DNA of 64,000 nt from Spizellomyces punctatus DAOM BR117 (Eukaryota). The position numbers were made by a program, and so were the translations under genes. How positions within the stretch are numbered: position 1 is the stretch's first letter; every line of letters starts with the position of its first letter. The DNA lies in NCBI GenBank assembly GCA_000182565.2, contig KQ257468.1; one strand, written 5' to 3'. Below the pieces are notes generated by a model, which worked only from the letters and a program-made list of their open reading frames with translations, had not been told where the DNA came from and did no database searches. Positions 1,964 to 61,082 of this stretch are shown here, one piece after another.

Positions 1964-2700
1964 TATTGTAAAAAATATCATGGTTCAAGATTAGTTATGT
2001 AGTTGACATTTGCACGAAGAATGTGAATGCGTTTGCTCAGGTCCTTTGAAATGCACCCAACAGTATTTCACTGTTGTCATACTGGGCACAGTGGTGACTC
2101 TGGCCCGGCCTACGATCTTGGTAGAGATTCTTTTTCTCCATGTGATAAGAGCTGACCATATTACTCCGGAAGGGACACCTGCATTGGTGCACGGATCTAT
2201 CATAATGTTTCACTTGGATTATCCGTTGAAAACCCCTGCTTCATTCAGACATATGCTACAAATAGGAACAAGGATATTTCCATACAACGTCGTCAGGCGT
2301 TCTTGGCGGATATCATACCATGTTAAATCAAACGAAAATGTGCCGCATAATGTCACTGAAGCCAGGATGGAGCTTGCATTATGGCTTGTGTACGTGAGCA
2401 ACTTGTGGGTTGCGTGGGTACTTTTGGTGTTTTTAAATTGTCAGGATATCCCCAGAAACGCGTCGCATAATCACGCAACGCGACCGCGTCGCGTTCTCGT
2501 TCATTCCCTGCAAATTGGCATTTTCATTGACTGCAACTTGTTGTTGAATCAGACGAAAGATGACGGGAGGAATGTCAACCAAGTATGATCCTCTCGAGGG
2601 CAAGGTATGGGTCCTACATTACCTCCTAGTAATCATGACCTCGTACCTACAACTCACCAAAACTTTCACGTAGAATCTCATCCTCCTGCGCAACCGGCGC

Positions 2701-4293
2701 ATGTATCTCTTTCTCTCAGCCTGTGCTGCCGGTCTCTTCCTCTTTCTTATTGTATCTACAATGCATTCCTCTCAGAAAGCTGCCTTATCAAAATTACCAC
2801 TGGAGACAGTCAAGTCACAAGGAGGAGCCATGGCTACATCGGACGAAGAAACTAGGTCCACGTCACCTTGTTCGAAGGAAACAAGACGAAAGGAAATTCT
2901 TGGTTCTACATTTTCTGATTGGGAGAACATGTGGGTTCGCGCAAATGACAACAGCATTCCGACAGTGTGGAGTGACGGAGGTGCTGGCTCTGGGGATGGC
3001 ACTCCGCCTGAGCCACTCGAAACAGCGAATACTGACAGCTGCTGGCCTGGGTGGTGCAACTTCTTCAATCCTACCGGTAAATGCCAGTGCTACGCCGAGT
3101 GTGTTCAGAAGGGAAATTGCTGCCCTGATATGCCGCAGGCGTGTGGCATGCAGCAACCTACAGATTTTGAATTGACGTTAAAAAATGTGTCTCTGTCCTC
3201 TATCGTCATCAGTTGGTCACCGACAGCATGTGAAAAGTTCAGAAACACGAGCCAGTTTGCTGTTGAATGGACAACGACGCCTGAAGGCAATGCGACTGCA
3301 CGCTGGTTACTGTTGCATAAATGGGAGTGCCCTGGGGAGACCTCCGCGCCGCTAAATGTTCAGCATGTGAATTTGGCTCCACACAAGCGATATCATTACC
3401 GAATGGTTGCCCAGAATACTTCTGGTTCATATCCCGTCTCCCAACATGTTTCCGTTGTAACGGCTCCTGTTTGTGCTATTGCTCCGCACTATAACGAAGA
3501 AGTCACTATACCGTTCCTGGTCAGCTCTCTAATTGATCACGTAGATTATTTCATCATTTTGGACAATGGTTCGACCGACTACTCTCTGGACTTGGTACAA
3601 GTTCTATATCCTCAGCATTTACAATCCGGCCGCCTGCGGATAATACTTACCGGCGCAGCGAGGGGAAATATGGGAATCGTGAGAACAATGGGCATCCAGC
3701 TCTCCCGAAATCTTGGATGCCGCTTTATGGTCAGTTTGGAGGCGGACTCTGTTTTTTACGATAAAGGGGCGGAAAGTATCACGGAGTTAGCGCGGAAGAT
3801 TCCCAGCGGCGTTCGATCTTTCCGGCATGTGTGGCTTGAGAGTATGCAGTTTGGTTGGAACACGACCGAGCAGTGGTTGGACGGAATGACCTTAATCACA
3901 CAGAAGAGAAATACCAGCGTAACCGGAGATGTCAGACGTCAAGCAGCTCCTGTTAGTGGAAACTATTTGTTACGTGTGCAAGGTGTTACTGCTCATGGTG
4001 CTTATTCCGACGAAGCAGCGGGACGTGGGGCTGAAAATTATTGGTATGGGAGCGACAGAAGAGGCGAGAATATTCTCTATGAGACTTGGGAGACTTGGCA
4101 TATCCATACCTCCCTATTGCGGCCTACTGACCGCAAGACTGAGAAATGGAAAGCCATGGGACGTCCTCCACAAGATGCATACACCTGGACAGATCCTACA
4201 GCGGTGCGGTTGAAGGTCGAAGAATTACCCGAAGCCTTCTACAGAATGACAGACGCTGTTCGGCGTATGTATTATGAGTTGCAATGCTCCTAA
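2701..4293 (+). CDS. Type II membrane protein: somatomedin-B domain + fibronectin type III domain + GT2-like glycosyltransferase (intronless)
   Basis: N-terminal hydrophobic anchor. SMB cysteine pattern SCWPGWC...CQCYAECVQKGNCCPD...C. FN3 pattern SIVISW...LAPHKRYHYRMVAQN. GT2 N-terminus APHYNEE...ILDNGSTDYS and a DxD-like EAD. Confidence 0.85.
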   Translation: MYLFLSACAAGLFLFLIVSTMHSSQKAALSKLPLETVKSQGGAMATSDEETRSTSPCSKETRRKEILGSTFSDWENMWVRANDNSIPTVWSDGGAGSGDGTPPEPLETANTDSCWPGWCNFFNPTGKCQCYAECVQKGNCCPDMPQACGMQQPTDFELTLKNVSLSSIVISWSPTACEKFRNTSQFAVEWTTTPEGNATARWLLLHKWECPGETSAPLNVQHVNLAPHKRYHYRMVAQNTSGSYPVSQHVSVVTAPVCAIAPHYNEEVTIPFLVSSLIDHVDYFIILDNGSTDYSLDLVQVLYPQHLQSGRLRIILTGAARGNMGIVRTMGIQLSRNLGCRFMVSLEADSVFYDKGAESITELARKIPSGVRSFRHVWLESMQFGWNTTEQWLDGMTLITQKRNTSVTGDVRRQAAPVSGNYLLRVQGVTAHGAYSDEAAGRGAENYWYGSDRRGENILYETWETWHIHTSLLRPTDRKTEKWKAMGRPPQDAYTWTDPTAVRLKVEELPEAFYRMTDAVRRMYYELQCS

Positions 4294-4345: not shown

Positions 4346-5377
4346 CTAGATTGTATTTTCCCACTCAGGACACAGTCGCGCAGCAGATGTCCACCATTCC
4401 AAGTACATATCCTTGAGAACAGGATGTGCATTCTCCCTAATTACACCGTTTGGGACTGTCCATGGTTTACCGTAGCGCCCTACATTTGCACTGAAATGGA
4501 CCACCTCCACCTCTTCTTCATATACGCGGCTTAGAGTGGTACGATTCTTTGCGGATTCCGCCGTCCAAAAGGAAGACCATTTGGGGACCGTTTCTGTGTC
4601 CCAATGATTATTCAACGTGACATACCGACCGGGAAGGAGCAGGACTTCGTTTCCAAACTCGTGATTGATCAAATCCATGTCGTATTCATTTTTCTCCAGG
4701 TTAGCAAGACGACCTTGAACCCTCTTCCAGAGTCGTGGTGATAGCTCGATAACCATTAGGGGTGAGGCAGCCCAACCGACCCCGCCACGTCCATCCGGTT
4801 GCTTGTCAACGCCGTGAAACTCTACATACCAATACGCGCGGGGTATTGCGATGTCGACGTGTGGCAATTCGAATAAATGGTCAAGATTCTTACGAACTAA
4901 TTGATCTGCATCTAATGTCAAGATTCTGGTGTACCCATATGTAGACAGCGAAAAGGCCAGAAGTTTCGTCATGACCTCCCCATATGTAGCAACATCATTG
5001 GGATTTGTCCCGGCAGGAGGTGGAGGAGGAGTAACGCTTACAATATGCGCACCGAAATGGGAAGCCGCCTTTTCGACGTACGCCTTTGGCACTTTGTCTG
5101 TTACAAGGAAAACGAATCGTATTTTTGAGCCCCATTTTCGAATCAGCGCCATGTTGATGAGCACTGAGCATGCATACTCAGTATTTGTGGCATAAAATAC
5201 GTATGCGTGGGACGAAATGGGCGTAGTGATATTGGGTGATATTGGTGAGTTCGGGGATATGTTCTTTGAAAGTGTCCACCTCGAAGGCATCGAGAAGGAC
5301 AGTAAAGCGAAAATTACCAGCGCGATAAGAGCAGGAAGCATGCCGTGCGGCTTTCCGCGTGTTGGGAGTATCTTCAT
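4346..5377 (-). CDS. GT8-family glycosyltransferase, GNT1/glycogenin-like, type II membrane (intronless)
   Basis: Motifs HAYVFYAT...Y.CS, TKLLAF...Y.RILTLDADQLVRKNLDHLF, PRAYW, YDMDLIN and VHFS...KPW. The likely start is MKILPTRG (5377), ahead of the TM segment; the ORF-track start further upstream is probably spurious. Confidence 0.88.
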   Translation of the reverse strand: MKILPTRGKPHGMLPALIALVIFALLSFSMPSRWTLSKNISPNSPISPNITTPISSHAYVFYATNTEYACSVLINMALIRKWGSKIRFVFLVTDKVPKAYVEKAASHFGAHIVSVTPPPPPAGTNPNDVATYGEVMTKLLAFSLSTYGYTRILTLDADQLVRKNLDHLFELPHVDIAIPRAYWYVEFHGVDKQPDGRGGVGWAASPLMVIELSPRLWKRVQGRLANLEKNEYDMDLINHEFGNEVLLLPGRYVTLNNHWDTETVPKWSSFWTAESAKNRTTLSRVYEEEVEVVHFSANVGRYGKPWTVPNGVIRENAHPVLKDMYLEWWTSAARLCPEWENTI

Positions 5378-5651
5378 CGCGCAGAAACCTAAGAAACAGG
5401 AAAACCAAAGTATGCACCAGTTGGCGACCTGTTGCAGTTGCTGGGTATGGCTGTGCTGATTAAGCAATGTGTACGCGCTTATGTGTACGCGTTTTTGGAC
5501 TGCCCACTGCACTGAGCAGACCATTTCAGATAGTGATTGCATTGAGATTAAGAATGTTGAAGAGACCACAACGAATGGTAGATAGATATAGCAGTGGTTA
5601 AAAATATACATATCATGAAAGATATATTGGTACAAAGAAAAGAAATACGGC

Positions 5652-8600
5652 TTAGTTTCTGAAGTCTGTCCGTACGTCTCTACGTCTTGCCAGCCATGAT
5701 GCCACAGCTATTTCTTCTAATATTCGCGCAACCATCTCATTTGTTTCAATGATCCCATCAACGAGGTCTTTCAGCGGCGTCAACCGCTCATTTGAATTGC
5801 TTTCATCTGGCAACAAGACGTCTTTCGCGTTCTTCTTATTCCATGCAACGACATTGAAGCCATTGAAGCTGCGTGCCGTTATTGCGGCAGCAACAATAGC
5901 TGGGTCGTCAGGAGAATTCGGTACGATGACCAAATCAGGTCTTACTGTCTCAATGACCTGCTGAAAGGACATCATCACCTCGGTTGCAATGTCAACAGCT
6001 CGAGATTTCCGTGAGAATTCCGATGCGACGCCAAGATCAAAAACGCCAGTGTGGAACGATTCCAGAGTCCATGAAATGCCCAATTCTGACAACAGTTGTG
6101 ACTGAGGGTAACGGCCTATTAGCACGGGGAACGGTCGTAATCGAATGTTGGGAACCGGCTTTTGCAAAGTAGTCGCCCAAATATACTCGTGAAGAGGCTT
6201 GAACAATCTTGCATCCTGGATCGTATCAACCAGGTACAGAATCCTCATTTCGTTCGGCCGCCACATTTCGGACATGAGAACGCGGGTATGGCCACGAGTA
6301 AAGTGCTTGAAAGTAATGTAATCTCGTAGTCTGTGTATATCCATCTCCTTACCGTTGACTGATATAGCGCCGTGTGTTGTGTCGCCGGAGGCTGAGATGG
6401 CACGATAATCAGGCGTGACAAGATGCGAGGATGGGTCACTGGCAGCAACCGGGAATACAAAAGTTGGTAGATTGGCGTACTTTGACAAGGTATAGGTAAT
6501 TTGAAAATCCTCGCCAGTCTCCCACGTAACTGCGTTTTCGCGGAACATGAGTTTGATCCAGTCTTTTTCCATAAACCAGATCCCCCCGACGAGGTCCACT
6601 TGCGTAATGACTTCGGGGTGTATCACTTGACCGAGACCATATGTTTCTTTGTAGTTGTTTGAGTTCTGAACAGGTACGATATGGCCTTTAGCGCCATACA
6701 AGCCTCGAAACTCCCCGCCTACAATATTCTGCACTGTTTTCATATGAGCGATCGTTATAGAATTGACAAGGTACCAAGCCTCGCTTACCATGGAGAAAAT
6801 TCCGAAAAACATTGGCTCCCGGCAGACAATCATCATCAAAAAAAACTGCATATTTGGTGGGTATCTGCAGCCCGACCTCGAATCGGCCAAAATATTTGAG
6901 CTGTACGTCGCCTTGAAGGAATTTGATCGGTATTTTCTGTGCTTTATGGCTATTAGCAAAGTCATCGACCGCCTGTTTGATTGCCGCGACTGATTTTGAT
7001 GCGAAAACGGTGATCCATATTTCGAGCGGTGGGACAGTCTGATTGAACAGGGAACCCAGCAAACGCGGGATCACCTCCACGCGATTGTAACCCGATATGA
7101 CCGCCGTAATTCCATTGAGCCCTTTGCCGTCACCATTTTCTGGGTACGAGGACGGCAGCTCCAGTAGTGCGGTCAAGTTCAATTGGCGCGGCTTTGTAGG
7201 TGCACGTACAAAAGACCGTGGTCTGGGCGCAATTGACGCTGCGGAAGTACTCTCACTGACGTTTGTTAGGGTGGTCTTAGCGGATTCAGCTTCCACAAGT
7301 TTGTCGCTCGCAATTGTGGGCCGATTTACAGCAATTTGGGCTAAACAATAATGTCAATATATTTCTTTGTGGACTATTACGCATGATTTTGATATTACCC
7401 GAACCCTTTAAGACAATATCAACAATTTTGCTCCCGGCAGTCCCATCCCCGTAGGGGAATGTCTTGATAGCCATTGCCGCGTAAGCTTGTTTATCAGTAA
7501 GAAGTTCTTGAACATGTCGGAAGACATTATCCTCGTCAGTTCCAATCAACTTCGCTACACCTGCTGTGACTCCTTCCGGCCGCTCTGTATCGTTTCGTAA
7601 CACCAGAATTGGTTTCGAAAAGGCCGTACCCTCCTCTTGAACTCCTCCAGAGTCAGTGAGCAACAGTGTCGCCCGCTTCAAAAGCTGCGCAAAGAATTCA
7701 TAGGATAACGGTCCTAGTAAAGTGATACGTTTATCATTGCCTAGGAATTGCGTAACGGTTTCCTGTACTGTAGGGTTCATATGAACAGGAAGTACAATAT
7801 GTACATCAGGAAATCCATCCACAATCCGCTTTATGGCCTTGCAGACGCTGATGAGCGGCGAGCCTAAGTTTTCGCGTCGGTGCATAGTTACGAGAAGGAG
7901 ACGGTATTGGCTCGTATGGGATTTTGCCGCTTCTTCAATTTCAAGCAGGCTAGAGGCAACCTCCGGCGAGGGCTCGAGGCTGGCCACCCATTGCAACGCA
8001 TCAATAACAGTATTCCCAGTAATGTACACATTCTCTGATGGTATTCCTTCGGCTTTCAGGTTATTTGCCGCATGCTGCGTCGGAACAAAGTGGTAGCTGG
8101 CTAGACCGGCTATGAGGCGACGGCTGGTTTCTTCCGGAAACGGGGAATACCTTTTGTATGTACGTAACCCAGCTTCAACGTGACCTACAGCTATCTTTTC
8201 GTGAAAAGCAACGACAGATGCTACGAAGGCCGAAGTCGTATCACCCTGCACAAGCAGCCAATCTGGGCGATAATGAGTCACAGCTTTGGTCATTCGCCCG
8301 ACGATTCGCTCCGTCAACGAGTTCAAACTTTGTCCCGATTTCATAACGTTCAGGTTAACATGTGGCTTGATATCGAATAAGCGGAGAAGGGGTTCAACCA
8401 TTTCCTGGTGCTGCCCGGTTACGCATATGATAGGGTTAATACCGTGAGTGTTGAGAGCTCTGATAATAGGAAACATCTTGATAGTTTCTGGCCGAGTGCC
8501 CATCACGATCATTACGCGAGGCGATTTGTTGAGTCCACCGTCATCGGGCAAAAGAAACTCGATATCCTTGCTGGTGACCCTCGATTGCGAGACAAGATGC

Positions 8601-8785
8601 GTGGAGGTGTCCAGAGAGGATACGAAGAAAATAAACAACAGGACTGTACAGGCAAGCAAGGCTAAAAGCCGAGTTCTGCGGGAAATCCGAATGGACCGTG
8701 GACTCTGTATCTCTCTCTTTGTAAAATGTAGTTTTTCATGATCAATCAGTATCTTAACTGTCTTAACAGGAGGGGTTTCCATCAT
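5652..8785 (-). CDS. Membrane-anchored UDP-N-acetylglucosamine 2-epimerase (WecB/non-hydrolysing type) fused to a GT-A (GT2-like) domain and a degenerate C-terminal epimerase-like domain; 2 introns
   Basis: Motifs GTRPE, TGQH, QGDT, HVEAGLR, PFPEE, HRREN, DSGGVQEE, TERPE and PYGDG. GT-AG introns at ~7398-7342 and ~6788-6736 join three ORF-track pieces in frame (...KGSAQIAVNRP... and ...NFLHVQNIVGG...). The GT part reads AVISGYNR...FFDDDCLPG...WETGEDF. Confidence 0.88.
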
Positions 8786-8964
8786 GATACGTTGCGGGAG
8801 AGCGAAAGGTCGTTGCCTTGCTCATCTGCGCTTGGAGATCTGCTTTTGTGCGGGTCGAAGTTGGCCCTGATCGGGCCCTGCTCTTACCTAATCTAACGCG
8901 TGCATAAGCCTCTGAAAAGCATAAAAGGCTTCTTGCAGCAAACAGAAATAACGACAACGAAACA

Positions 8965-10300
8965 ATGACCCGACGAAAAGCACTTTCCAACCAACTTGTT
9001 ATCGTTTTGGCTATATGCGCCTCCAGCGTCTGTTTCTTTTTCGCAGGCCCGATACTGATCCCACATAGTCAGATAGAAAAGGCAATTGACAGAACAGGCA
9101 CTTGACGTTCATTCATTGCTGAGGAGAGCTGACACTGGTACTATACTTGCAGCCAGAGGACGACCTCATTTCAGCTTCGTCTGCATGCAAATCTCAAGTG
9201 ACGCTAAGACGTGCCCCTCCGCGAAAGGTACCATTGCCATCAATTCTCCGATTGTATAGCCAAAAATAATCCATTGGCCGTCAATCAGGTGGTGGGAAGC
9301 TATTATGACGATTTTCTGAGGATCACCGCAAATATTATTGAGGTCTTGGAGAATAGACGATCGGGAGTAGCAGTTGCAAGGTAAAGAATTTAGCAGGGTT
9401 ATGTGATCACGGACGTCGATTGAACACGCGTTGGATTAGATATGGAGATGGTGAAAGGGAACTGATGCTAGGAGGCACCATTAAACCAGCTACACAGGCT
9501 GGGCAGGTACATGCATCTGTTGCCATTAGCACCTTGCATCTGCTCTAATGAAAAGCGTAGGTTGACAAGTGGTCATGGGAGAAGCCGGGCATCTCCTTTC
9601 TTGGTCGAGATCTGCTGGACACCTTGTCCTCTCACTATGATGAGCCATACTACTATGGGTTCGCTGCTCCTGTCCAAGATGCGAGCGGACTGAGATTTTT
9701 CATCAATGCCACAGGTAGCTATAGCAAGAATTTCCCGAATAATGATATATACCAGAAATCTCTGACGCCCTCTAATAGAACAGCACTTGGATTACATCAC
9801 GTTTGCGAACATATGGGTGAATGACAACTACAAACATACAAAAGAATTCATCAAAAAGATTGCAGAACAATACGCTGGCCGTATCGTCATTATCGCAAAT
9901 CATATTACAAAGGACAGAAGCTTGGTGCCAAGTTGGGCTTCAGAGTTTTTCTCAACTCCAGACGATTGCGTTGCCTTCTGGGAACAGAATCGTGACGAGC
10001 ATCTCGCAAAAATTGAGGCTCTCGGCCGCAGACATACACGTAAATTGTTTATGATATCAGCTGGCCCTATGGCTAAAGTATATGTGCATAAGCTCTGGAA
10101 CGTGAATCCGCACAATGCTATAATTGACTTTGGATCAAGTTTGGACGAAATACTCAAGGTAGTTATAACAGTATCCTTCACGAAAGCTGATCAAATTTAA
10201 AGTTTGATTATGCTACTAGGGAGAAACGACACGACCCTACCAATCCGCCAGTGCAAATGAAGTGGACCCAAGTTGGCAGCTTATACCGCAAACTATATAG
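8965..10300 (+). CDS. Type II membrane GT-D-fold (DUF1792/GT101-like) putative glycosyltransferase; multi-exon
   Basis: First exon MTRRKALSNQLVIVLAICASSVCFFFAG is a TM anchor. The spliced product contains VARYGDGERELM, FMISAGPMAKVY and IIDFGSSLD, matching the R(F/Y)GDGE, GP.AK and ID.G motifs of GT-D proteins. Splicing of the first 2-3 exons is uncertain. Confidence 0.7.
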
Positions 10301-12348: not shown

Positions 12349-14140
<1,792 letters not shown>

Positions 14141-21228: not shown

Positions 21229-24200
21229 CTACCTCTCTTTCTTCACCCATCTCTTGACCCACCCAGCACTTTGTTGCTTTACAACAAACGCCCAAAGGAA
21301 GAGCGCACAGATCGCCCAAAATCCCACATACGTATGCTTCGATCCATAGAGAATCACGAGCCCACTCATTATCCATACACCCCACGTTGTTACATTCCGA
21401 AGCCTTAAACAGATGATTAATTAACACCACGATGTGCACAACATGAAGGGCGAGACGGCATTAGGTCGTCAGTAACATACCCCTCAGGCAGAGCGGTCAC
21501 GTCCTCGACCCCGACCCATAGCACAAGAAGGCCCACAAATGGGTTCAGATTCCCAGTCCACACCCGGCCCTCCCAGGCGTCACGCGCCCATATGACAACG
21601 GCAGGAATTGAGTAGGGTTGGAGGAGGAGGAGAAGCAGGGTAATTGGAAGATGCTGTTGGGATAGCGTCTTGGCGGAGAAGAAATGATGAGATGTCGCCT
21701 GTTGCACTAAAGGCGACGGAATGCGCACCTTTTGATTACTGTGGGCGAGGAGAGCAAGAAGCAGAGCTAGGGTACAGAAGACATAGTGGGGTACAAGGCA
21801 GCAACCGAGAACGAAACTAATCAGGTAACCAGTAGGACCGAACGTAAGGTGAAGCCTAAACCGACGACAAACGTTAGTGCCCCGATAGACCTATCTCAAT
21901 CGTACAAACTCGCCTTCTAACACAACGTCTCCAGATCCACCCCAGACCGGCACCAAGCAAATATCCAACGGCCACCAAAATCCCATAAATAACGACAGTT
22001 AACCCAACAGAAACGACGTACATGGCCGGTGCCAAGATCGCCCCCCACATTCCGCGACTACCCAGCAGCAGTCCACCAATGTGTGTTGCAAGAGGGACCC
22101 GGAGAGGGAGGGATACCAGGAGTGTTTGAAAGATGCCAAAAAGGTACAGAATGACAGAGATGGGCAGGTGGGGAAGGCTGGTGACAGCTGCAAGGAAGGA
22201 CGAATTCCGACCTGTCCAGTGATACGTGAGATACCTGAAAAACATAGGCGACTCCGGTAACGAAAAACAAAAGGATACCATTTATATTTCTAGCCCAGAT
22301 GTTACCGGATCCCGCAATGGCAATGCCAACGAGAAACGCCATCCAGCTCATCATATACCGTCCTACCAATCGTCCCATACTGCCTCTCCAATCAACAGAC
22401 ATCCTAACATGAAGTATACATGATCTGTCAGACCATACGCGAAGTTCCAGGCCTGTAAGACCGGGTACAGCCGCAGTATATTGGGGATCGCCGTAGAAGG
22501 ACAGCCAGTCACCTCCGCTATTGCGGAGAAATTTTTCTTCTGAGAAAGGCGGAAAGGACTGGTGAATGACGGGAGAGAATAGCGGAGGGCCTGTGGAACA
22601 TGTAAGCCGCAGGCGCATTGTGGTGAAAAGGACAGAATTGCGGTACTTACCATTTGGACAAGCCGACCGCCACTGTATGTGGTACTTTAGCAGACTACTC
22701 GTCATGCTGGGTATCCGCAGACGACTGAGCGTTGCTTTCACCGGAAGGGTTATATCAAAGCTGGTTAACACATCTAATTTACCGCCCTCATTAACAGCTG
22801 TTATATGATGCAGTTTCCACACAAGCGACACCACCCACCCGTAATAGAGACTTCCTTCGAAAATTTCACATCGGCTTCCTTCACCATCTCCCCCGCAAAG
22901 AAACCGCTTTGCCACGACCTTACATTCACAGCCACAAGTCCCATACCCTCCAGTTGATTCAATGGGACAAACCCATGATAGAGAACAGGCTCACCAGGGA
23001 GTGGTACAACCCAGTTACTGACCTTGCGGCATGCCTTCGGGTATGAGCCGCTTTCATCACTTTCCTTTTCGCAAAAAAGGACTTCAACTTCGGTCGGCTG
23101 AACGCTTGTGACGAAAGTAAAAGTGTCAAGTTTGGTCGACGGCGGCGGCAGTTCTAAGGTGTACAGCCCGCGAGAAACTGTCTCACTGGTTCCGGAGAGA
23201 GTGAGGTTGTGTCCCTGGATACGGTTGAGTAGATGGATAGGAAGGTCGGAGCGAAGCGATTCATCCAGTGGTCCTTCAGAGCATTGGGTTTACGTTGGTA
23301 AAAGCGCAAAAGTCAGAGACTACGGTTGCTCACCTCTCACGGTATGCTCGCCGATCCCACTTTTCAAAGCTCTGCCCAAGATAGTCATTCGCTCTTCCAC
23401 ACTACCGACCCTACCCCGTTTCTCAATTGCAAACAATGCCCGAACCAAAACTTTCATCAGCTGATTACACCACAAGATCGCTTTATGATCCGCAGCGGTC
23501 CAAACAAACGGGATACCCGTTGAATAAACCGTGAACCCATGGGAAGGTGGGACTATAAGACCAGTCTCCGCTGCGTCAGAAGAGATCATTGTATCCTGGT
23601 TTCCGCCTGCAATAGATACTAGCACGATATTGGATAGAAGGGTTTCATTCGAACGGACCAGTTCCGTTCGCCAGAAAAGATTTATGCGTCGGTACAACTT
23701 TTTCATGGTCCAGTCCAGCGGTGCGGGCGGCGAGAGGTGGGGCGTGGCAAGAGTAATGATGGTATGTACTGATTCGGGGCTGTATGTTGCTAACGTAGGG
23801 AGTGTACGAGCAACAATGCCGCCCATAGAATGAGTAACAAGGGCCATTGATGTGCGTTGTGGGCTTGGCTGGCCGGGAGAGGTGTATAACGACAGAATAT
23901 ATTTGATGGCTTCATTGACGTACTCGGCTTGGTCCTGAACAAGGTGACCTTGGAAGGCCGCCAGTTCTTCATTTGTATCGACTGGCAGGATATGATATCA
24001 ATGTTCGGCAATAAAAAGGTCGCCAACGACCTCAACCACCTACTAGTAAACAAGTCAAATGGAGCAAGCCGTTGCTTTTCGTCCCAACTTAGCCCATTCA
24101 AGAGATCCCAATAGTGGCCTGACAAGATTGACCCAAGCGACCTGGCTTGTTTGTAACTCCCCGCATTGCCAGGAATAAAGAGGACTGGTACACCCACTGG

Positions 24201-28888: not shown

Positions 28889-31800
28889 TTATGAAGGGTG
28901 GTACCCAGGTAACCGTATCTGCTGCTCATAAGCATCCACATACCGTCTCTCGTCATTCAGTACCGTCGCAAGGGCGTTATAGATTGACATCTCGGATTCA
29001 TTCGAATTCGGACGAACATAGTCGTTTCCTGCTGTCAAGATGGCTGCCAATTGAGAACGGTGGCTGGACTTCTGCAGCACTTTTGCGGCACGTCGACGTA
29101 CATCGACGGGAAGAGAGGAGGTGCTATCGCATAGACTGAATAAGTCTGAAGCGAGTTCTGAGACGGTGTTTGTAGAGTTCATGTTTCGTAGTGGATTTCC
29201 ACTAGTTTCTGGCAGTAGAGAGCGGATGTCTTGAGAGGATACAACGGGGACGCCAGATGCCATGGCGAGGAGAGCCGTGTCTACGGATGACAATGAAAGG
29301 GCAAGGACGACATTGGATGCTGCAGCTAAGAGTCGGTACCGCTCGTCGGACATATACTCTTCTTCGAAGAAATTCACGACCTCGGAGCGTCCGGTTGCGG
29401 TCCAGGCTTGCCGCACGGCATTTTGAAGTGGTGTTCCTCTTAACGGCACCATGACCAGCGTGCGTCGTTTGAGTAACTTCTTTAACGCCAATGCAATGTC
29501 TACCACTTTCGAAGCATCAATAACGGTGCCAGTGTACGCTACAACACAGGCAGATGATACGCCTCTCTCCCCCTTGAAAACCGCCCTTCGTGCTGCATTG
29601 AGATCCCGCTTCGGTGAAAGATACATGATATTTATGCCGCGTTCCAAATGAAGAACGGAATCTGGCTTGCGCGCTCCGTTTCTTTGCAGGATGATGTCGT
29701 GCACATGGGGGCTTCCTGTCATGGTACGATAGATACAGTTTCCGTTCAACGCCGACATAGTCGCAAACCCTCCCGACCGCCAGCCCATGTCCGCCGCGTG
29801 AACATAGTCGAATACCGCCGTTTGCCTTGGTAGATGTGCGCACAATGACGGCAAAGCGTCGTACCCGAAAACGGATTCGGATATCAAGAGCGCCTGGATG
29901 CGTCGACTGTTTGTTAGGTACACCAAAAACCGAGGGAAATCAACAGTTCTTAAAAACATGGGAAGAACAAAAATGTCATGGGTGTACATGTAGTATTCCG
30001 AACGGAGTTCATCGGACTGGTTGAGCACCGCTACAACCGTAATACGCCAGCCTAGTCTGGCTAAATCGCCTACCATCCCCAAAATCCTTCTCCCAGGAAT
30101 ATCGCCGCGGAAGCTGTCGATAAGAAACAATGCACGTCGTTTCGAACTAGGTGCTACAGAATTCAGAAATGGCGGAAGCCATTCTATGCTCTCGAAGGGT
30201 TGAGAAGCGGGAATATCATGCGCGGGCCAAGTTTGCGGCCCTGAATGCTTCTCGTTGATATATGCATGGGTCTTTTCCCAGGCCTTACCAAAGTTGGACC
30301 AGTTGTGTCCAGTACCAATCCGGTACCAATACGAATATTCGGGTATAGTAGCTCCCCAGGAACCGCTTTCCGCTAGGCATAACCAAAAGTCGTAGTCCTC
30401 CCCTCCATGGGTCAGCACGGGATCAAAAATGCTGCAATTACGGGTTGCAGAGTGTCGTACCACCGCCCCAGACGGGACAGTATTCTCCTTCTTTAACTTG
30501 GATCCCATGTGGGGGCCAGCTAGGCTGATATCTGCGGATGTTCCAAAAGTGACCATGTACCAGCTGGCAATGTCCAAATGCGGGTTCGTCTCCAACAACC
30601 AAACAGCTTGTTCGTAAGCAACAAGTTCTCGTAAGTCATCGTCGTCTAAGAATGCCTGATAAGGAGTGTTTACCTGAAAAAGGGTTTAAGCCAAGTTACT
30701 ACGACATATGTTGCATTGCGTTTCAACTTTAGCTACATACGTGTTGAAGTGCAAACGTTCTGGCGGCCGATACACCGCGCTCCCCGGTATTATTTACTAT
30801 CGTGATGCGTGAATCCAATGCAGCGATCCGATTAAGCATTTCAAGGGCTTCTGGTTTATCCGAATGATCGTTGACAATGACCCACTTGAAAGCTTGGAGG
30901 CTCTGTTGTCGCACAAACGGGGTTGTTTCTGTCTCCAGAAGCGGCCGAGGATTCTGGGTCACTGTCAGAAGGGTGAGCATTGGCTTATCGGCAGCCGCTG
31001 CTGCTTGGGTGACGAATTGATTGCGTGGTCTTGCAGGATGAATTGGAGTTTGTGTATAAAAGGTGGAATCATGCAGTCGTCGAGGGCGTGCTTCTGATGA
31101 CACGCCAAAGGGAAATTCTTCGTCATTGCTCCAATTGTCCGTAATTATCTCTTCAGTATCTGGAAGCTTCTCGTTCCACAGTTCTACGTCTATCTCCTGT
31201 TCGCTGATGGTGTGCTCTGGCAGGTATCTTTTCAGATTGTCTCGGATGCCAAACATCCCATAGAATAAGCCCAGAAGAAATATCGTGCTTAGAAGCAAGA
31301 TGGACCCACGTTTCCTGTACGGTCTCAGATCCGTTCGGACTTTCTTTTCAGCTCTTTTGGGCCCCGGTAATACTTGTATCGATAGACCTCCGTTGTCCAC
31401 TGATCCGCGGATAACCTCATCATCATACGCCCCAGACAGGCCAGCCTCTCTGTGTATAATGTAGCTAGATCTAGCCACTCCAACGGCTATTAAGCCCATA
31501 CCTGTTGCCAGTAGCGGAGACATGGAAACAGCAGCGTCCGGAATCCATCCATATTCATGGGTGAAAAATGCTAATCCCACCACAATAATCGATTTTACAT
31601 CATCTAGGATTCCATATCTTGGGCGAACCGTGCTGCTGTGCCTTAAATTCAGAGCAGCAGGATGCCACATAGCGGTCAGGAGGCAGGTTATTAAAAACCA
31701 ACCCCCTATTGTGCCGATCTCAAATGCCTGCTGGAACTGGGATATGTAGCCTCTTCTACACAGGATCAGTAGCAAGCTGGAACCGGCTAGGATAACCGTC

Positions 31801-32521
31801 CGATGGTATGATATGGAGCAAGAGGTATCAGCTCCACCCGCAGCGCCGTCCTTAACGCGGCAGTCGATGTGTAGAAGTACCTTCAACAATATACCGATAG
31901 CAGTGATGAAAAGCGCAGTCGAGTCAATGCTATCGACGGAGCATTGTGTCGCGAGAGCAATACCGAGTAGCCAAATGGAGTGAAAGACAATGGAAGATGT
32001 GCCATAGCGAGATCGAACGAGCACATATCTCAGGATTGCTGCACAGGGCGTATGCAGCATCCACAGGATCTGGAAAACAGAGATCGGCAAAAGGGCGAGG
32101 GACCTGCGCATACAATCAGACACAGTTGAGTAAAGTGCCCATATTTTCAATACCGTGTCAAGATGGCCTCCCTTTCGAGAGAATGTCATCCTACTTACCA
32201 GTTTTCTAATACATCGCTAACAGCAGCCACCACACCCCGTAAAAATGGCGCCGAATGACTCTCAGTCGCTCCAGACAAGGCGTTTGTAAATGCCAGGTCA
32301 CACAGATGGCACGATAAAGAGACAAACAATGCGAGATCAAAGGTGAATTCTGCATCTGCCGAGGCGTAAATGAGCTTTCTAGTGAACACCTTGGCAGCAT
32401 TGGCAGCAATGTATCCGATAATTGCGGCGTAGACATGTCGGTGGCCTTCATCCTTTGATTGCATTTGCGAAACAAGAGTCGGATGCGCAGATGAACGCGA
32501 TCGCGTCGCGTTGGTCATCAT
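28889..32521 (-). CDS. Large fusion protein: N-terminal multi-TM transporter-like region + GT2 domain + degenerate GT4 (GT-B) domain; 2 introns
   Basis: Introns at ~32.2 kb and ~30.74-30.67 kb join three ORFs. About 9-10 hydrophobic helices precede GT2 motifs WVIVNDHSD, GVSAAR, AFLDDDD and GGEDYDFW. GT4-like segments follow: RALFLID...GWRITVV and LAMASGVPVVSS. Confidence 0.8.
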
Positions 32522-33431: not shown

Positions 33432-34956
33432 CTAAATGTTCAACTCCAGCGCAACAGGATAGTCCATCCCTTTTGCGGTGAGATGCGCGTCTATTTTCAC
33501 GAATGCATCCCAGATTTGTTTCTCCTTGGCTGTTAGCTCAGTCGGAATGCCAGCCGTCGCAAGGAGGCAGTCCGACCCGTCTGTGGTCCAGTCCAAATTA
33601 AATCCGCTCCGATCATTCATCCAAATGCTCGGCTGGGCGTGTTTGGATGGTGGAAGTTTTTGGGGAGTTCGTAAACCGTTGTTCACCCAGAGAAGTGCTC
33701 CTTGGTGGTCGCCATGCGCCAATTGTCTACCGCAGACCTATCATAGCCGGTTACTCCGGGTGCAAAGTTGAGCTCTTTGTCGACTTTACTTACTCGCAAT
33801 TTGTCCCCAGAGAATTGACCCATAGCACCTCCATATCCTGGGTTCCACGCGTAGGGTATCCCGCTCATTTCAAAACCTATCCAGAACGTTTCCTTATCAC
33901 CCCATACCCGCTGATAAACTTTACTAGCCCATGGTTTTGAATTTAGCAAGCATGCTGCTAGTAATCCTGGGAACACTCTTGCTTTGTTGATCACTACCAC
34001 TCCTGACTCTTGCTCATGTTGGCTCTTTCCATAAATATACCGTGAGCCATATGTTCGACTAGAAGGATTTGGAATGACAGATAGCAGCCATTGTAGATCT
34101 TTTGCTGACCCTACCCAACCCGAGGTCCGATCATGGAAAAAGACTGCACCGGTACCGATGTAGCCCGGGTGTGCGTATAATGCAGACGGATCTTTAAAGA
34201 ACACTGCATCAGCGTCCATGAAAATGGGCTCTGCAAAAGATGATGCTAGGAGTGCAAACGGCTTTGCTCCCCATCCGCCGTAGCCTGCAATTGAGATATC
34301 GATGACCTAACCAGGCAGTCTGTCAGCCTGGAGCAACTGCCTCATTGGATAAATGACCCCCACACAACCTTCGTAAGATCTTTACACTTTACGCCGGGGA
34401 TCTTTGCTAAAAGTTCACGGTTACTTGCAGAGAGATCCTCTTCTCCCATGTACCAGATTTCGATTGGAAGTTTGCAGCGGTGAACCAGACGCATCCCTAC
34501 AATCAAGGGATACGCTAGGGCCAAGTCGTGGTCTCCAAATGTATATACAAGCCCTCTTCCTTTTCCGCGTAACACGGAAATTTCATTTACGGGAAGCCAT
34601 GGGTAAAGCAAACGGATGGCGTCTTCGACTGGTTTTCTTGACTTTGAATATTGAAATGCGTTGCTAAATGCGAGAATACGCGCTCGCAAGTTTGGCATAT
34701 CTTCGAACGTTGTATTGAGCGGACTTTGCGAGAGTGGCACATCTTCCCATTTATATCCACTTTGATCGGCTACTGTGTCATCTTCTTGGGTGTAAAGGAA
34801 GCCTTCAGTAAGCTGGGAGGTGTCCTTGCTGTGTCGGAGCGACGATTTGCTACTTGAAGATGGCCACCATGATAGGAAAAGAAAGGTCGTTGCGATGATT
34901 AGAAGGAGAATTAGACGTCTGCGGAACATGATTCTCGACAGAGCAGAATGGTACAT
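33432..34956 (-). CDS. GT71 alpha-mannosyltransferase (MNN1/MNN2-like, Mannosyl_trans3); 2 introns
   Basis: TM anchor, then GRGLV, CKLPIEIWY.G..DL, GWGAKPFALLASSF.E..FMDADAVF, TGAVFFHDR, EQESGVVVINK, WGDKETFWIG and CGRQLAH.D...LLWVNNGL. Confidence 0.92.
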
Positions 34957-35137
34957 GACTGCTCTACTGGCCAAAGTCGCATTGGAAGAAGCTTTGGGTC
35001 GTTGCGCGTCACGAACGCGAGCAAAGTTTATTAGGTAAGCATAGTTGATAATTTTCAGGTGATGCGGTTGAAGGGCAAACAAGAAAATTGCTGACATGAA
35101 TCGTTGAACCGTCTTTTTGAACAAGAACATTGCTTGG

Positions 35138-36457
35138 ATGATGCGAGATGGTAAGTATCAAACGCAGACGCAATGGCAACAGCAATGGTCCTTTTCGAAA
35201 TTAACTCGCCGCAAAAGGGTATAAAAAGTACGGAGCTCTCGTGGCGCTAGCAGTGCAGAATATCGCCTCCGTGATGGTCATTCGATCGTCGCGAAAGTTT
35301 GGCCGTGAGAATGCGGTCGCTTCAACCGCTGTGCTATGCGCCGAGGTCCTCAAATTTATCGTATGCACCGTGGCTCACGTCCTGCGAGAGGAGTCGCGGA
35401 GTGCCTCGACAGTTATTGCAAAGGATATCTTTGGAGAGGATTCTGCATGGAAAATGATGATGGTCCCGGCAGCTTTGTATACGTTGCAGAACTGGCTTCA
35501 CTATTTTGCGCTTTCCCGTGTAGACGCAACAACACATCAGAGTGAGTAACACTGTCGGTTGGGGTACACTTGCACATTCCAATGGTTGATGTTGATGCTA
35601 CGTTGTTAGTCACGTTGCAGTTACGAATCCTGTCCACTGCTATATTCTCCGTTTTTATGCTCAAAAAGAGACTGTCATGGATGCAGTGGGTATCATTGCT
35701 AGTGCTAACTGGTGGAATGGCGCTAGTACAGCTACCTAGTGGAAATTCGGCTACCAAGATAGAGGCGGGGAGCAAAGCTGCCACCGACAGGCTCATAGGT
35801 TTGGCTGCAATAGCCCTTATTTGTGTGACCTCGGGATTTTCCGGGGTCTACCTAGAAAAAGTGCTTAAGCGGACAGCTACAACCTTATGGGTTCGCAACA
35901 TTCAGTTGGCATTCTTCAGCTCAATTTTCTGCGCCGTCTTTGGTGTGATTCTGCATGATGGGGCCGAGGTCGCTTCTAGAGGCTTCTTTGCGGGATATGG
36001 GTGGGCCACCATATGTGCGATACTGCTGAGTGCAGCAGGCGGACTTCTTGTTGCCATTGTCATCAAATATACAGGTACATTCCCTGCCTCAGTTCATTCA
36101 AGGCCAATACATTGTGCTTACCATCCCGTATGCCTGGTCCATTGCTATTAACCAGATAATATTGTAAAGAACTCGGCTATGGCCATCTCTATCATCACGA
36201 GCGGAGTGATATCGTCCCTCATTGGCGACTTCACACTAACGACGAACTTCCTTCTGGGTGGTATACTCGTGATACCATCCGTATGGATATACTCAATGAA
36301 TCCAGCACCTCCGCCACCTAGTAAGCTACTTCCAACCACAGCGATAGAACCATTCATTTTGAGAAGCATTAAAGTTCGTTCTTATAAGGTAGGGCTTATG
36401 GGAGACTTCCGTAAATTTCTTGTTTCTGTGATGTTGAAGCACGGATCTCAACTATAG
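35138..36457 (+). CDS. SLC35A-family nucleotide-sugar transporter (UDP-Gal/UDP-GlcNAc/CMP-Sia type); ends approximate
   Basis: Motifs STAVLCAEVLKF, VPAALYTLQN.L, QLRILSTAIFS, SGFSGVYLEKVLK, LWVRNIQLA and GGLLVAIVIKYTDNIVKN. Confidence 0.9.
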
Positions 36458-58758: not shown

Positions 58759-60159
58759 TCAATCTACATAAATGACATCGAGAACCATCGATCCAAAAAA
58801 AGCTGCAAACTCTGTCGCTTGCGCTTCCAATGCTGACTTGATGGCATCGGTAAAGAACACTCCATCAGGAAATCTTGTCATCACAAACTCCATTTGATTT
58901 GGGAGACTTTTTGTGTAAGACCATGTTCCAGCTATTCGGCCCTCAATCAAGATAGTAGGATTGATGATACCATTAACAGTCCATATTTTCGATTTAAGGT
59001 CGGGTCGAATCCAGAAAGATTTGTCAGCATGTGCCAAAAGAAGTGGGTCAAAACGGAACAGAAGATATACGGGCCATTCGGAGGGTGGTGGGACGGGTTG
59101 CTCTAAGAGGACGGCTGTTTCTGAGGTGACATAGTATTCTTGGACTTTAGTCTTTCGTGACGGTAATACAGCAAATGTTTCTTCAGCTGGTTCCAAGTGG
59201 ACTTTGACAATTTCATTTGCCTCTAGTAGCGCCTGGACAGCCGCACGAGAAGGTCCCGCACTGAGTGACATCCAATATCGAAAGTCGCCTTCCGTCGCAG
59301 GGCCATATGCTTTAAAGTATCGTCGAGCAACCTCGACCAAAGCGTCTTTTTGTTCTACTTTCATACACAGAAGCTCTTCCTCTGTAACAACACGGGACCG
59401 AGGTGCCATCACCGGATTTCCTGAGTCGACGTCAATTCGAGCCCCATGTCCTTCCATCGTTGCGCACATAAACGTACTGTATTGAAGTTTACCATTGTGG
59501 CCACAGGCTTCTAAATCCTTTCGCGTCGCACACCTTCCTGCCGAGAGAATCGACAACAGGTCCTCTCGTGCAGCGTCCAATTCGGCTGATGCGTCCTTTC
59601 CTGTCACTCGTCCAGCCTTAACTGACGCAACTCTGTTGGCGATCACTGCCTCGCCAACTGCCCCAATTACAATGTCCCAATCTTTTCGATCGTATATATG
59701 AAGAGTACATCGTTGTCCCCATATTCTAATCAACCCTTCTCCATTTTTGATAACTCCTTGCAGTTCGGAGAGAGTGAGGGGGTCTTTCTGCGCTTTGTTG
59801 CAGCGGCAACGTGCACCACCTCTCAAAAGTCGCTGCCAAATGGATACGAATCCTGACGCTGTTTCCTGTGCTTGTATACCGAACAAATCTGCTGCAACTT
59901 TGACCATGTCTCCCACACTGCCCGATAGCTTCGGATTGATAAGATGTGAACCTTGAAGGCGCAGATATCGTGCATGTTGCTCGCTTATGGTTATAATGTC
60001 AGAAGGCAGGTTGCCTGTTGCAGTGCGTTTCGTAGTGCTTGCCTGGCGCTTCCTTGGCGGACTGGGAGCGCTGCTTCGGGTTCGTCGCTTCATGGCTTGG
60101 AATGTCCTTGACAGATTTCGACGTCGAAACATTTGGTATCTCCGGCGTGTCTGAGTCAC
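58759..60159 (-). CDS. HTH_42 / AlkZ-family DNA glycosylase (interstrand-crosslink repair type), intronless
   Basis: Motifs GIQAQ (QxQ), LIRIWGQRCTLHI, RRYFKAYGPATEGDFRYW, LL.RFDPLLLAHADK and NG.I.PTILIEGRIAGTW. Confidence 0.88.
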   Translation of the reverse strand: MTQTRRRYQMFRRRNLSRTFQAMKRRTRSSAPSPPRKRQASTTKRTATGNLPSDIITISEQHARYLRLQGSHLINPKLSGSVGDMVKVAADLFGIQAQETASGFVSIWQRLLRGGARCRCNKAQKDPLTLSELQGVIKNGEGLIRIWGQRCTLHIYDRKDWDIVIGAVGEAVIANRVASVKAGRVTGKDASAELDAAREDLLSILSAGRCATRKDLEACGHNGKLQYSTFMCATMEGHGARIDVDSGNPVMAPRSRVVTEEELLCMKVEQKDALVEVARRYFKAYGPATEGDFRYWMSLSAGPSRAAVQALLEANEIVKVHLEPAEETFAVLPSRKTKVQEYYVTSETAVLLEQPVPPPSEWPVYLLFRFDPLLLAHADKSFWIRPDLKSKIWTVNGIINPTILIEGRIAGTWSYTKSLPNQMEFVMTRFPDGVFFTDAIKSALEAQATEFAAFFGSMVLDVIYVD

Positions 60160-61082
60160 GACATGATCGGCTTAAATAAGCATCCATAACACGAAGTTAC
60201 TCGCTTTGAAGTTACTCGCACAAGGTGTCAATGGAGGGTTTCCTTTGATTTCCTCTTGTTACCGCCATCCGTCGCGAGAACAAGGGCTGCGATTCCTTGC
60301 TCCTGCAAAAAGTCCGCACAGATGGAACGTCGACCCTTTCAATCTTGACAACTCGTATCTAGTTTGCAGTAAACGTGCTCTCATTGAGACTAATTAGGTT
60401 TGAAAACGTGAATGGGTTGGGTGGATGTACATCTTGCACTCTATTCTCTCGTCATACCCTTCCAAGCCTCCTCATTTTGAGCTTCAGGACGTAAAAGAAA
60501 AATGAAAGAAAAAGGGACCAGGCGGGCCCAGCCTGGGGGGCACACATGAAGCCTGATTCGTAGTTTGTTGGTACGGATCGACATCATGCATCGCGGTCGT
60601 GAACATCATACGGACGTTTGCAGTTCCGCGCAATGTGGAGATCGAACCCTTGAGTTTTCCGCAAAGTCCACTCTCAGGAACGAACGCATTACCCCATAAG
60701 CTATCCCCACAAAGTCAAACTTTATGTGGTTTGTCAAATCGTAAGCTGTTTACTCGGAGTAATGCTATTCCTAGAAATCCTTCGTTACTCTGCGAACGCT
60801 TCAAAATATTAGAGAGCGCCTCGGAGCAATATCTTGAATAGCTTGAAATGGGCTGTATTTTTCATCGAGACATAAGTTTTGGGCACGCAGCTTTTGTTAT
60901 GATGCTTGCTCAATTTACATCGCCGAGCTTGCCGTTCCCTCGGGCTCCATGTCCCATTTAGGAACTCCCTTCTCATGATTTGCATCTGATGGCAGTCCCC
61001 ATTCTACCTCAGTACGCCATGTATACCAACAGGGCAATTCCGCCAATTCCATAGTGCATATCATTTTATATATTCTCTTCTG

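Follow-up and report, generated by a model that had tools for sequence, protein, structure and literature searches.

The non-hydrolysing UDP-N-acetylglucosamine (UDP-GlcNAc) 2-epimerases of the WecB/MnaA family are soluble, cytoplasmic, single-domain enzymes in bacteria, as exemplified by the solved proteins from E. coli (1f6d/1vgv), S. aureus (MnaA/Cap5P-type, 5enz), and Bacillus anthracis (3beo). Here, we describe a gene of the chytrid Spizellomyces punctatus DAOM BR117 whose product is like these enzymes in its full-length match to the family, its conserved sequence blocks, and its equivalog-level score in TIGR00236, but differs from them in carrying a predicted membrane anchor and stem ahead of the epimerase and two domains behind it, namely a GT-A fold glycosyltransferase and a truncated WecB-like lobe. 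The gene lies on the minus strand of a 64,000-nucleotide stretch of contig KQ257468.1 (assembly GCA_000182565.2), hereafter the window, to which all coordinates refer (Table 1). It combines known enzymes in a conserved and unstudied eukaryotic architecture, of which the transferase family and the pseudo-epimerase module lie outside current domain libraries.

Several described systems resemble this protein in part. Bacterial and metagenomic fusions of WecB to a TagA-like domain (PF03808), to GT2 or GT4 transferases, or to UDP-N-acetylmannosamine (UDP-ManNAc) dehydrogenase are numerous among the 120 WecB relatives listed. They likewise join the epimerase to the next enzyme of a pathway, but their partners belong to other domain families, and neither PF03808 nor a dehydrogenase fusion occurs among the 150 listed relatives of the chytrid glycosyltransferase (GT) module. 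Animal GNE (4zht) shares the epimerase superfamily fold and a bifunctional fusion, yet it is hydrolysing, cytosolic, and fused to an N-acetylmannosamine (ManNAc) kinase, and its match is far weaker (E 1e-8 to a profile). The nucleotide-sugar interconversion enzymes of the plant Golgi have the short-chain dehydrogenase/reductase fold and no relation to WecB, and they carry no fused transferase. The likeness is one of concept: the type II UDP-xylose synthases and UDP-glucuronic acid 4-epimerases of plants are described as converting nucleotide sugars in the Golgi lumen beside the transferases that use them (PMC10631120, PMC6018967). UDP-ManNAc itself figures in a predicted diatom pathway (PMC5932028).

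A three-exon gene encodes the fusion protein

On the minus strand, three stop-to-stop reading frames follow one another head to tail (7286-8821, 6688-7353, and 5652-7070). The original prediction had read them as a single protein of about 1000 residues at 5652-8785, and these coordinates prove exact, with a start ATG at 8785 and a TAA stop at 5654-5652 in the DNA. Both introns have GT..AG borders and join the three frames without a frame shift. Intron 2 offers two in-frame acceptors, at 6719 and 6734, which yield proteins of 1001 and 1006 residues, respectively. Only with the 6734 acceptor does the translation agree throughout, with 0 differences in 1006 residues, with the public protein of Spizellomyces punctatus DAOM BR117 (XP_016604608.1/KNC96568.1, here P0405); the spacing at the 6734 junction is also that of the proteins of Spizellomyces sp. 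'palustris', Terramyces, and Boothiomyces. The junction of intron 1 (GS|AQIA) is kept in the protein P0001, and sequence conservation runs continuously across both junctions in six chytrid proteins. Comparison at the sequence level thus confirms one three-exon gene, not three genes.

The fused gene model is already part of the public annotation. Its public name, UDP-N-acetylglucosamine 2-epimerase, fits only the first 46% of the protein, and more than half of the protein is without annotation. The corresponding Thoreauomyces model (P0121) starts within the end of the epimerase domain and represents, by its sequence, a truncated copy of the same fusion. In addition, a single open reading frame (ORF) of an assembled Trinity transcript from the amoeba Pyxidicula operculata (P0162) encodes an anchor, WecB, and this transferase.

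The first catalytic domain is a complete WecB-type epimerase

The epimerase domain scores 435.6 bits against the wecB equivalog model TIGR00236 (cut-off 210.15), covering profile positions 2-364 of 366, and matches PF02350 with an E of 2e-102 (343-347 bits). Its score against the NeuC_NnaA model TIGR03568 (71.1 bits) is under the cut-off of 235.9, which sets it apart from the hydrolysing NeuC/GNE type. End-to-end alignments to the solved structures 5enz, 3beo, and 1f6d have E values of 1e-98 to 1e-103, with an identity of about 50% to the S. aureus and Bacillus enzymes as estimated by eye from the alignments. The blocks GTRPE, (Q)GDT, GHVEAGLRT, PFPEE, HRREN, DSGGVQEE, and TERPEG each have their aligned counterpart in 5enz and 3beo and are also the consensus among 25 fusion homologues; we take the individual residues in them to have the catalytic and UDP-binding roles of the family. 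The domain is, by family membership, a complete non-hydrolysing WecB-type epimerase, and the earlier statement that its motifs are intact is borne out over the full length of the domain.

The second domain has the fold of a GT-A glycosyltransferase

The region downstream of the epimerase had been read as a GT-A domain with a DDD motif. In an alignment of 25 homologues, D631, D632, D633, and E721 never vary and T719 and D722 are at least 90% conserved; separate alignments of 36 and 20 sequences show the same conservation of both motifs. Intron 2 falls between DDD and TGED, so that both flanking exons are needed for a functional transferase.

Profile matches to known families are weak. The Pfam GT2 model gives 19.7 bits with exon 2 alone and 16.0 bits with the whole protein, both below the cut-off of 23.3. 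Among 36 family members, PF00535 is matched in 21 and PF13641 in 24 (E ≤ 0.01), mostly near or under threshold, and PF09258 in one (E 0.0085). P0405 has no match to PF03808 (GT26, TagA/WecG) at E ≤ 0.1, that family is also missing from the 11 listed for the 36 members, and no QxxRW-type motif is seen after TGED in the sequence. Matches to the sequences of solved transferases are not significant (K4CP 0.066, TarS 0.075, heparosan synthase 0.48, KfiA 0.67-1.3), and the leads from the protein Atlas, all below 0.9, are GT2- and GT64-like viral clusters.

For the comparison of folds, we modelled P0121, the Thoreauomyces module with 50% identity, using 36 aligned sequences (predicted local distance difference test, pLDDT, 80.8; predicted template modelling score, pTM, 0.82). 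In the VIA-align comparison, 955 of 998 chains align at Z ≥ 8, and most of the top 50 are glycosyltransferases placed on the GT-A half. The Pasteurella heparosan synthase 2 (PmHS2) leads with a Z of 17.9 (root-mean-square deviation, rmsd, 3.0 over 230 aligned residues), followed by EXTL2 (17.3 and 16.9) and KfiA (16.6), with 15.5 as the fourth value given for matches of this heparosan/heparan type. The GT2 enzymes come close behind, with PcManGT at 16.0, the Chlorella hyaluronan synthase at 16.0-16.3, and BcsA at 15.7-15.9. Foldseek places K4CP first (3e-9) and gives SpsA a target-normalised TM-score of 0.57. Thus, the fold and the invariant DDD bear out the earlier reading, and the model is that of a clear GT-A fold glycosyltransferase.

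The nearest structural neighbours, PmHS2 (its GlcNAc transferase), KfiA, and EXTL2/EXT, are retaining alpha-1,4-N-acetylhexosaminyltransferases of heparosan/heparan synthesis (EXTL2/EXT in CAZy family GT64). They share a DDD-type metal motif with the chytrid domain, but their sequence likeness to it is not significant in the case of PmHS2 and KfiA, and the GT2 enzymes trail them by a mere 1-2 Z units. PmHS2, EXTL2, and KfiA all use UDP-N-acetylhexosamines (UDP-HexNAc), and these leading model-based matches would fit a UDP-HexNAc donor such as UDP-ManNAc. The inverting GT2 enzymes (SpsA, K4CP, PcManGT, and the hyaluronan and cellulose synthases) are linked to the domain by weak Pfam matches, the top Foldseek result, and common DxD and ED motifs, whereas the fusion protein stays under the Pfam gathering score of that family (16-19.7 vs 23.3).

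A truncated WecB-like lobe follows the transferase

The original prediction described a fusion of two domains; its epimerase and its GT-A domain both stand, but a third domain at the C-terminus had been missed. This segment aligns to the WecB profile in hhalign with a probability of 97.9. Restricting the rows to those without WecB gives 97.8 and restricting them to chytrids gives 94.7, compared with 1.4 for the GT-A domain as a control. A hidden Markov model (HMM) built from 20 members without WecB matches solved WecB proteins (3dzc 6e-6, 8ahe 1.4e-4, 3beo 2.2e-4), aligning to the first 130-156 residues of their structures. Consistently, the modelled lobe superimposes on the N. meningitidis WecB 6vlb with a Z of 14.7 (rmsd 2.2, 142 residues) and on 3beo with an rmsd of 2.7 over 145 columns.

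In an unbiased search of 48,161 chains, the matches on the C-terminal part of the model (from residue 343) are 2-epimerases, and one poor row, 4cvh (rmsd 21.9), covers both domains. The matched 2-epimerase chains extend from residue 1 to about 370, and a low-confidence gap in the model sits where the UDP-binding C-lobe would be; together, these observations point to a WecB from which the C-lobe was deleted and the C-terminal helix kept. The WecB catalytic blocks are not kept in the alignment of this segment. The module thus looks like a truncated WecB-like lobe that is predicted to be catalytically dead, and the pTM of 0.82 for the P0121 module suggests that it packs rigidly on the GT-A domain.

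The fusion recurs in other organisms and in both domain orders

A HMMER scan of 1.84 billion representative proteins with exon 3 returned 199 proteins at E ≤ 1e-3 and 57 at E ≤ 1e-10. The chytrid members come from Spizellomyces, Thoreauomyces, Terramyces, and Boothiomyces. Further members include three paralogues in the amoeba Pyxidicula, a protein from the ichthyosporean Ichthyophonus, and one partial rotifer record that may be contamination; the others are metagenome or Logan proteins. Only two proteins came up when the C-terminal 480 residues were used in a word-indexed search. The GT-A plus pseudo-lobe module is, judged from these searches, a small family barely recognised by Pfam.

A WecB domain is clear in 13 of the 150 proteins listed among the 199 representatives, and in 11 of the 24 listed that have at least 800 residues. 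The N-terminal regions of seven members without a clear WecB give fragmentary WecB matches, the best with an E of 1.3e-4 over 39 residues only. One of the long WecB carriers, a metagenome protein of 1075 residues (P0243), has the reverse order, with an anchor, the GT module, a complete WecB (479-810), and a methyltransferase domain (896-1004). In the tree, this WecB falls together with a protist sequence from MMETSP. Since it occupies the position of the pseudo-lobe, decay of an epimerase so placed is a plausible, if unproven, origin for the pseudo-lobe.

A different combination is found in an 878-residue protein with the EukProt label Rmarinus (P0024), which we take to be probably Rhodelphis marinus. 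Here, an anchor and WecB are fused to a different type of transferase (CHGN PF05679/Glyco_transf_7C PF02709), which suggests, from the domain content, that independent eukaryotic WecB-transferase fusions exist and that a membrane-anchored WecB fused to a transferase is a recurring eukaryotic theme. The architecture is therefore fairly widespread. Wide occurrence together with prior characterisation had been named as grounds against the original prediction; of these, only the former is borne out, as full-text literature searches turned up no description, from chytrids or any other eukaryotes, of a membrane-anchored WecB or a WecB-GT fusion.

Predicted topology and proposed mechanism

The original prediction of a basic tail and a transmembrane helix ahead of WecB agrees with a single signal anchor. 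Residues 1-39 form a basic tail, the sequence RRTRLLALLACTVLLFIFFV is found at residues 36-55, and residues 40-58 are the sole 19-residue window of the protein with a Kyte-Doolittle value above 1.6 (maximum 2.72). The charges flanking it are +4 (N side) and +1 (C side). In the full-length AlphaFold2 (AF2) model (mean pLDDT 78.9), a helix spans residues 36-58, and pLDDT falls below 50 over most of residues 56-86, corresponding to a stem. An N-terminal hydrophobic segment is present in 15 of 21 homologues examined, with the more positive flank on the N side in 14 of these 15; the remaining six are N-terminally truncated models or much longer proteins. The sequence thus has the features of a type II membrane protein, namely a single N-terminal hydrophobic helix, a short basic tail, positive-inside bias, and an unstructured stem, and we predict it to be one. 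Five N-glycosylation sequons are present (N86, N398, N489, N517, and N562). The linker at residues 465-498 also has a pLDDT below 50, and the pTM of 0.55 for the whole model points to a flexible tether of the active epimerase.

In the mechanism that we favour, the protein would reside in a secretory-pathway (Golgi-type) membrane with all of its domains in the lumen. The epimerase would convert imported UDP-GlcNAc to UDP-ManNAc, and the tethered GT-A domain would add ManNAc from UDP-ManNAc to a glycan or glycoconjugate acceptor. Consumption of the product would pull an equilibrium that is unfavourable for UDP-ManNAc, and luminal synthesis would remove the need for a UDP-ManNAc transporter. We consider luminal UDP-ManNAc synthesis with direct ManNAc transfer the most economical mechanism and lean towards it, with topology, compartment, donor sugar, linkage, and acceptor all inferred for the fusion protein. 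The functional coupling of epimerase and transferase, already proposed in the original prediction, gains support because the same two domain families are recurrently fused, and in both orders.

Several points weigh against this proposal. Localisation, activity, donor, and product are predictions from sequence and models, and the GT45/GT64-type structures lead the GT2 enzymes by only 1-2 Z units, so that CAZy family, donor, and stereochemistry are not readable from the modelled fold. The pTM of the full-length model predicts no fixed epimerase-transferase interface and no physical channel. The literature searched holds no report of ManNAc in chytrid glycans. In bacteria, WecB and its transferases act on the cytoplasmic face of the membrane. 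Finally, no read of an RNA run with the same species label (X7; 3'-biased, about 6% of the run read) joins across either intron.

An alternative that we regard as unlikely, though the least so of those considered here, concerns the donor. The epimerase might supply UDP-ManNAc to another enzyme, for example the neighbouring GT8 or GT2 protein, and the fused GT-A domain might transfer a different sugar such as GlcNAc; the protein would then carry out two successive steps of one glycan instead of a relay from donor synthesis to transfer. The nearest solved folds are indeed those of GlcNAc/GalNAc transferases, the matches include two dual-activity polymerases, K4CP and heparosan synthase, and the gene sits among other glycosyltransferases. 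However, the repeated fusion of WecB to the same GT family in both orders is explained most simply by substrate hand-over. There is also no other obvious UDP-ManNAc consumer, as no GT26/TagA-type domain occurs in the protein or in the 28 neighbouring ORFs scanned.

We give somewhat less credence still to a cytosolic orientation, in which the catalytic domains would work on the cytosolic side of the endoplasmic reticulum (ER) or Golgi and use a lipid-linked (dolichol-type) or membrane acceptor there, much as bacterial WecB-dependent pathways operate at the inner face of the plasma membrane. All characterised WecB enzymes are, to our knowledge, cytoplasmic, UDP-GlcNAc is made in the cytosol, and a Pfam scan of the 28 window ORFs contains no nucleotide-sugar transporter. 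Against such an orientation stand the charge bias at the anchor (+4 vs +1), which recurs in 14 of the 15 anchored homologues, and the succession of short tail, anchor, disordered stem, and catalytic domains, which is the layout of Golgi type II enzymes and is also found in the adjacent GT8 and GT2 genes.

Beyond the preferred luminal mechanism, a broader picture can be sketched, which we find possible but doubtful as a whole. A conserved eukaryotic family in chytrids, arcellinid amoebae, and probably ichthyosporeans, built from a signal anchor, WecB, GT-A, and a WecB remnant, would make UDP-ManNAc in the Golgi lumen and transfer ManNAc into an undescribed fungal cell-surface glycan, with the half-epimerase as a fossil of the GT-then-WecB order, intact in P0243, that now serves as a structural or regulatory lobe. 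If so, zoosporic fungi and some amoebae would carry the bacterial-style sugar ManNAc in a surface glycan, and its donor would be made inside the secretory pathway and not in the cytosol, a new entry among the few luminal nucleotide-sugar conversions. There would be a new glycosyltransferase family to classify, and the truncated WecB lobe would provide a clean example of a catalytic domain turned pseudo-enzyme module. The system would also open the scarcely explored glycobiology of the chytrid cell coat to testing; S. punctatus is genetically tractable.

Origin of the epimerase

The bacterial ancestry of the WecB family is not in doubt. The WecB domain of the fusion protein shares 42-54% of its residues with bacterial enzymes and 47-53% with those of Rhizophydiales chytrids. 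We computed trees of 110 and 65 WecB domains, leaving out the partial domains P0009, P0129, P0143, and P0149, and left out P0162 from the constrained-tree test for its very long branch (2.68). Bacterial rows were the best-scoring matches plus 12 named loci, a sampling that cannot name a donor. The chytrid sequences and two metagenome proteins form a clade of eight rows with a support of 99 that includes two orders, and deeper nodes are weak. For the approximately unbiased (AU) test, groups were based on architecture but set after the first tree had been seen. A constraint that joined the chytrid clade to the six other fusions to the same GT gave a tree 33.9 log-likelihood units above the quick free search (p-AU 0.82), and adding the group of Cafeteria, Rmarinus, MMETSP, and P0243 gave one 32.3 units above it (p-AU 0.80). 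A single WecB clade of fusion proteins, several of them eukaryotic, is thus compatible with the sequence data and not demonstrated by them.

Horizontal acquisition had been argued in the original prediction from the intron-less epimerase exon. This argument is weak, as the lack of an intron in that exon says little about origin. The exon has a GC content of 0.480 and a GC content at third codon positions (GC3) of 0.487, equal to those of exons 2-3 and of neighbouring genes, and the gene is common to Spizellomycetales and Rhizophydiales. The sharing by two orders, the native composition, and a single fusion clade that is not rejected indicate an old origin, for which a donor cannot be named. 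The epimerase was acquired before the two chytrid orders parted and possibly long before that.

That Spizellomyces alone gained the domain from bacteria in recent times is therefore very improbable. The overwhelmingly bacterial distribution of the family, an identity to bacteria as high as that to Rhizophydiales, and the 1.4-kb exon without intron would all agree with it. However, it conflicts with the well-supported clade over two orders, with the constrained fusion-type trees that score above the quick free tree, with the native GC and GC3, and with an anchor and a fusion partner that are common to non-fungal eukaryotes. A survey of horizontal transfer in early-diverging fungi lists no epimerase in its main text, and its supplementary tables may list the gene (PMC11291939).

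Transcript evidence

The runs X1-X3 consist of unspliced, genome-like contigs that continue through both introns. Reads of X7 pile up on the sense strand of the fusion gene at 5568-6080, with a depth of 45-54 over 5568-5909, and this is the single 3' pile-up within 5652-8785. Just past the epimerase exon (7278-7448), the depth is 1.0. A major transcript ending behind that exon, which had been put forward as an observation that would speak against the fusion, is thus not seen in the X7 reads sampled. Three adjacent genes each show one sense-strand pile-up at the 3' end.

That the fusion is an annotation artefact, with the epimerase exon and the downstream exons as separate genes, is hardly credible: neither junction is spanned by reads and a retained intron 1 would lead to a stop at 7286, but exon 2 has no in-frame Met codon in its translation and therefore cannot be translated alone, no 3' pile-up of X7 reads follows exon 1, conservation is continuous over both junctions, and the same architecture appears in Spizellomyces, Thoreauomyces, Terramyces, and Boothiomyces gene models and in the Pyxidicula transcript.

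Genomic neighbourhood

The window is rich in genes for glycan building and the secretory pathway (Table 1), which fits a role of the fusion protein in a cell-surface glycan. Directly downstream on the same strand lies a GT8 gene with its own 3' RNA pile-up (4371-4712); its product matches Glyco_transf_8 with 24.4 bits (cut-off 24.3) and has an anchor at residues 12-30. The Pfam scan of the 28 window ORFs contains no UDP-ManNAc dehydrogenase and no sialic-acid genes.

Table 1. Positions of the fusion gene, its domains and motifs, and other genes in the window.
Feature	Position	Strand	Description
Whole coding region	5652..8785	minus	3 exons, 2 introns, 1006 codons plus stop
Exon 1	7399..8785	minus	Predicted cytosolic tail, signal anchor, stem, complete WecB; residues 1-462 plus 1 nt
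Intron 1	7341..7398	minus	58 nt, GTAATA...TTTAG, phase 1
Exon 2	6789..7340	minus	Disordered linker and N-terminal half of GT-A including DDD
Intron 2	6734..6788	minus	55 nt, GTAAGC...AACAG, phase 1; inside GT-A domain
Exon 3	5652..6733	minus	C-terminal half of GT-A, WecB-like pseudo-lobe, stop
Signal-anchor transmembrane helix (predicted)	8612..8668	minus	Residues 40-58, LLALLACTVLLFIFFVSSL
Non-hydrolysing UDP-GlcNAc 2-epimerase (WecB/MnaA) domain	7406..8518	minus	Residues 90-460, TIGR00236
GT-A glycosyltransferase domain	6273..7191	minus	About residues 513-800, interrupted by intron 2
DDD motif	6837-6829	minus	Residues 631-633, exon 2
TGED motif	6518-6507	minus	Residues 719-722
WecB-like pseudo-lobe (predicted)	5655..6260	minus	About residues 805-1006; N-lobe Rossmann domain and returning helix of 2-epimerase
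GT8 gene	4349-5377	minus	343 aa, type II; ATG 5377, stop codon 4346-4348
GT2 type II gene	~2700-4290	plus	Anchor, then Somatomedin-B, fibronectin type III, GT2
GDP-mannose 4,6-dehydratase gene, multi-exon	~12400-14100	plus	One exon PF16363 2e-15; typical motifs in ORF translations
PGAP1	23323-23997		
GT2-containing gene	28892-32216	minus	GT2 match at end of 30732-32216 frame
Mannosyl_trans3-type gene	34345-35157	minus	
AlkZ-like DNA glycosylase	58762-60171	minus	470-aa frame, full PF06224 domain, 1.6e-36

Within the 3' part of the GT8 gene, window position 4524 shows C for A in 5 of 30 X7 reads, which could be a strain difference or an error. The glycosyltransferase encoded at ~2700-4290 combines Somatomedin-B and fibronectin type III domains, an unusual set of extracellular type. 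Two ORFs before it, 1402-1944 (with a weak FkbM methyltransferase match, E 0.0037) and 2007-2585, could be parts of this gene or of a different one. On the other side of the fusion gene, the GDP-mannose 4,6-dehydratase is a second nucleotide-sugar enzyme within 4 kb; the ORFs between them (9357-10200, plus strand) have no Pfam match even at E 1. The more distant GT2-containing gene at 28892-32216 was considered as a paralogue of the fusion GT module and rejected (BLASTP E 5.6). Towards the far end of the window, the AlkZ-like DNA glycosylase belongs to a family that is mainly bacterial.

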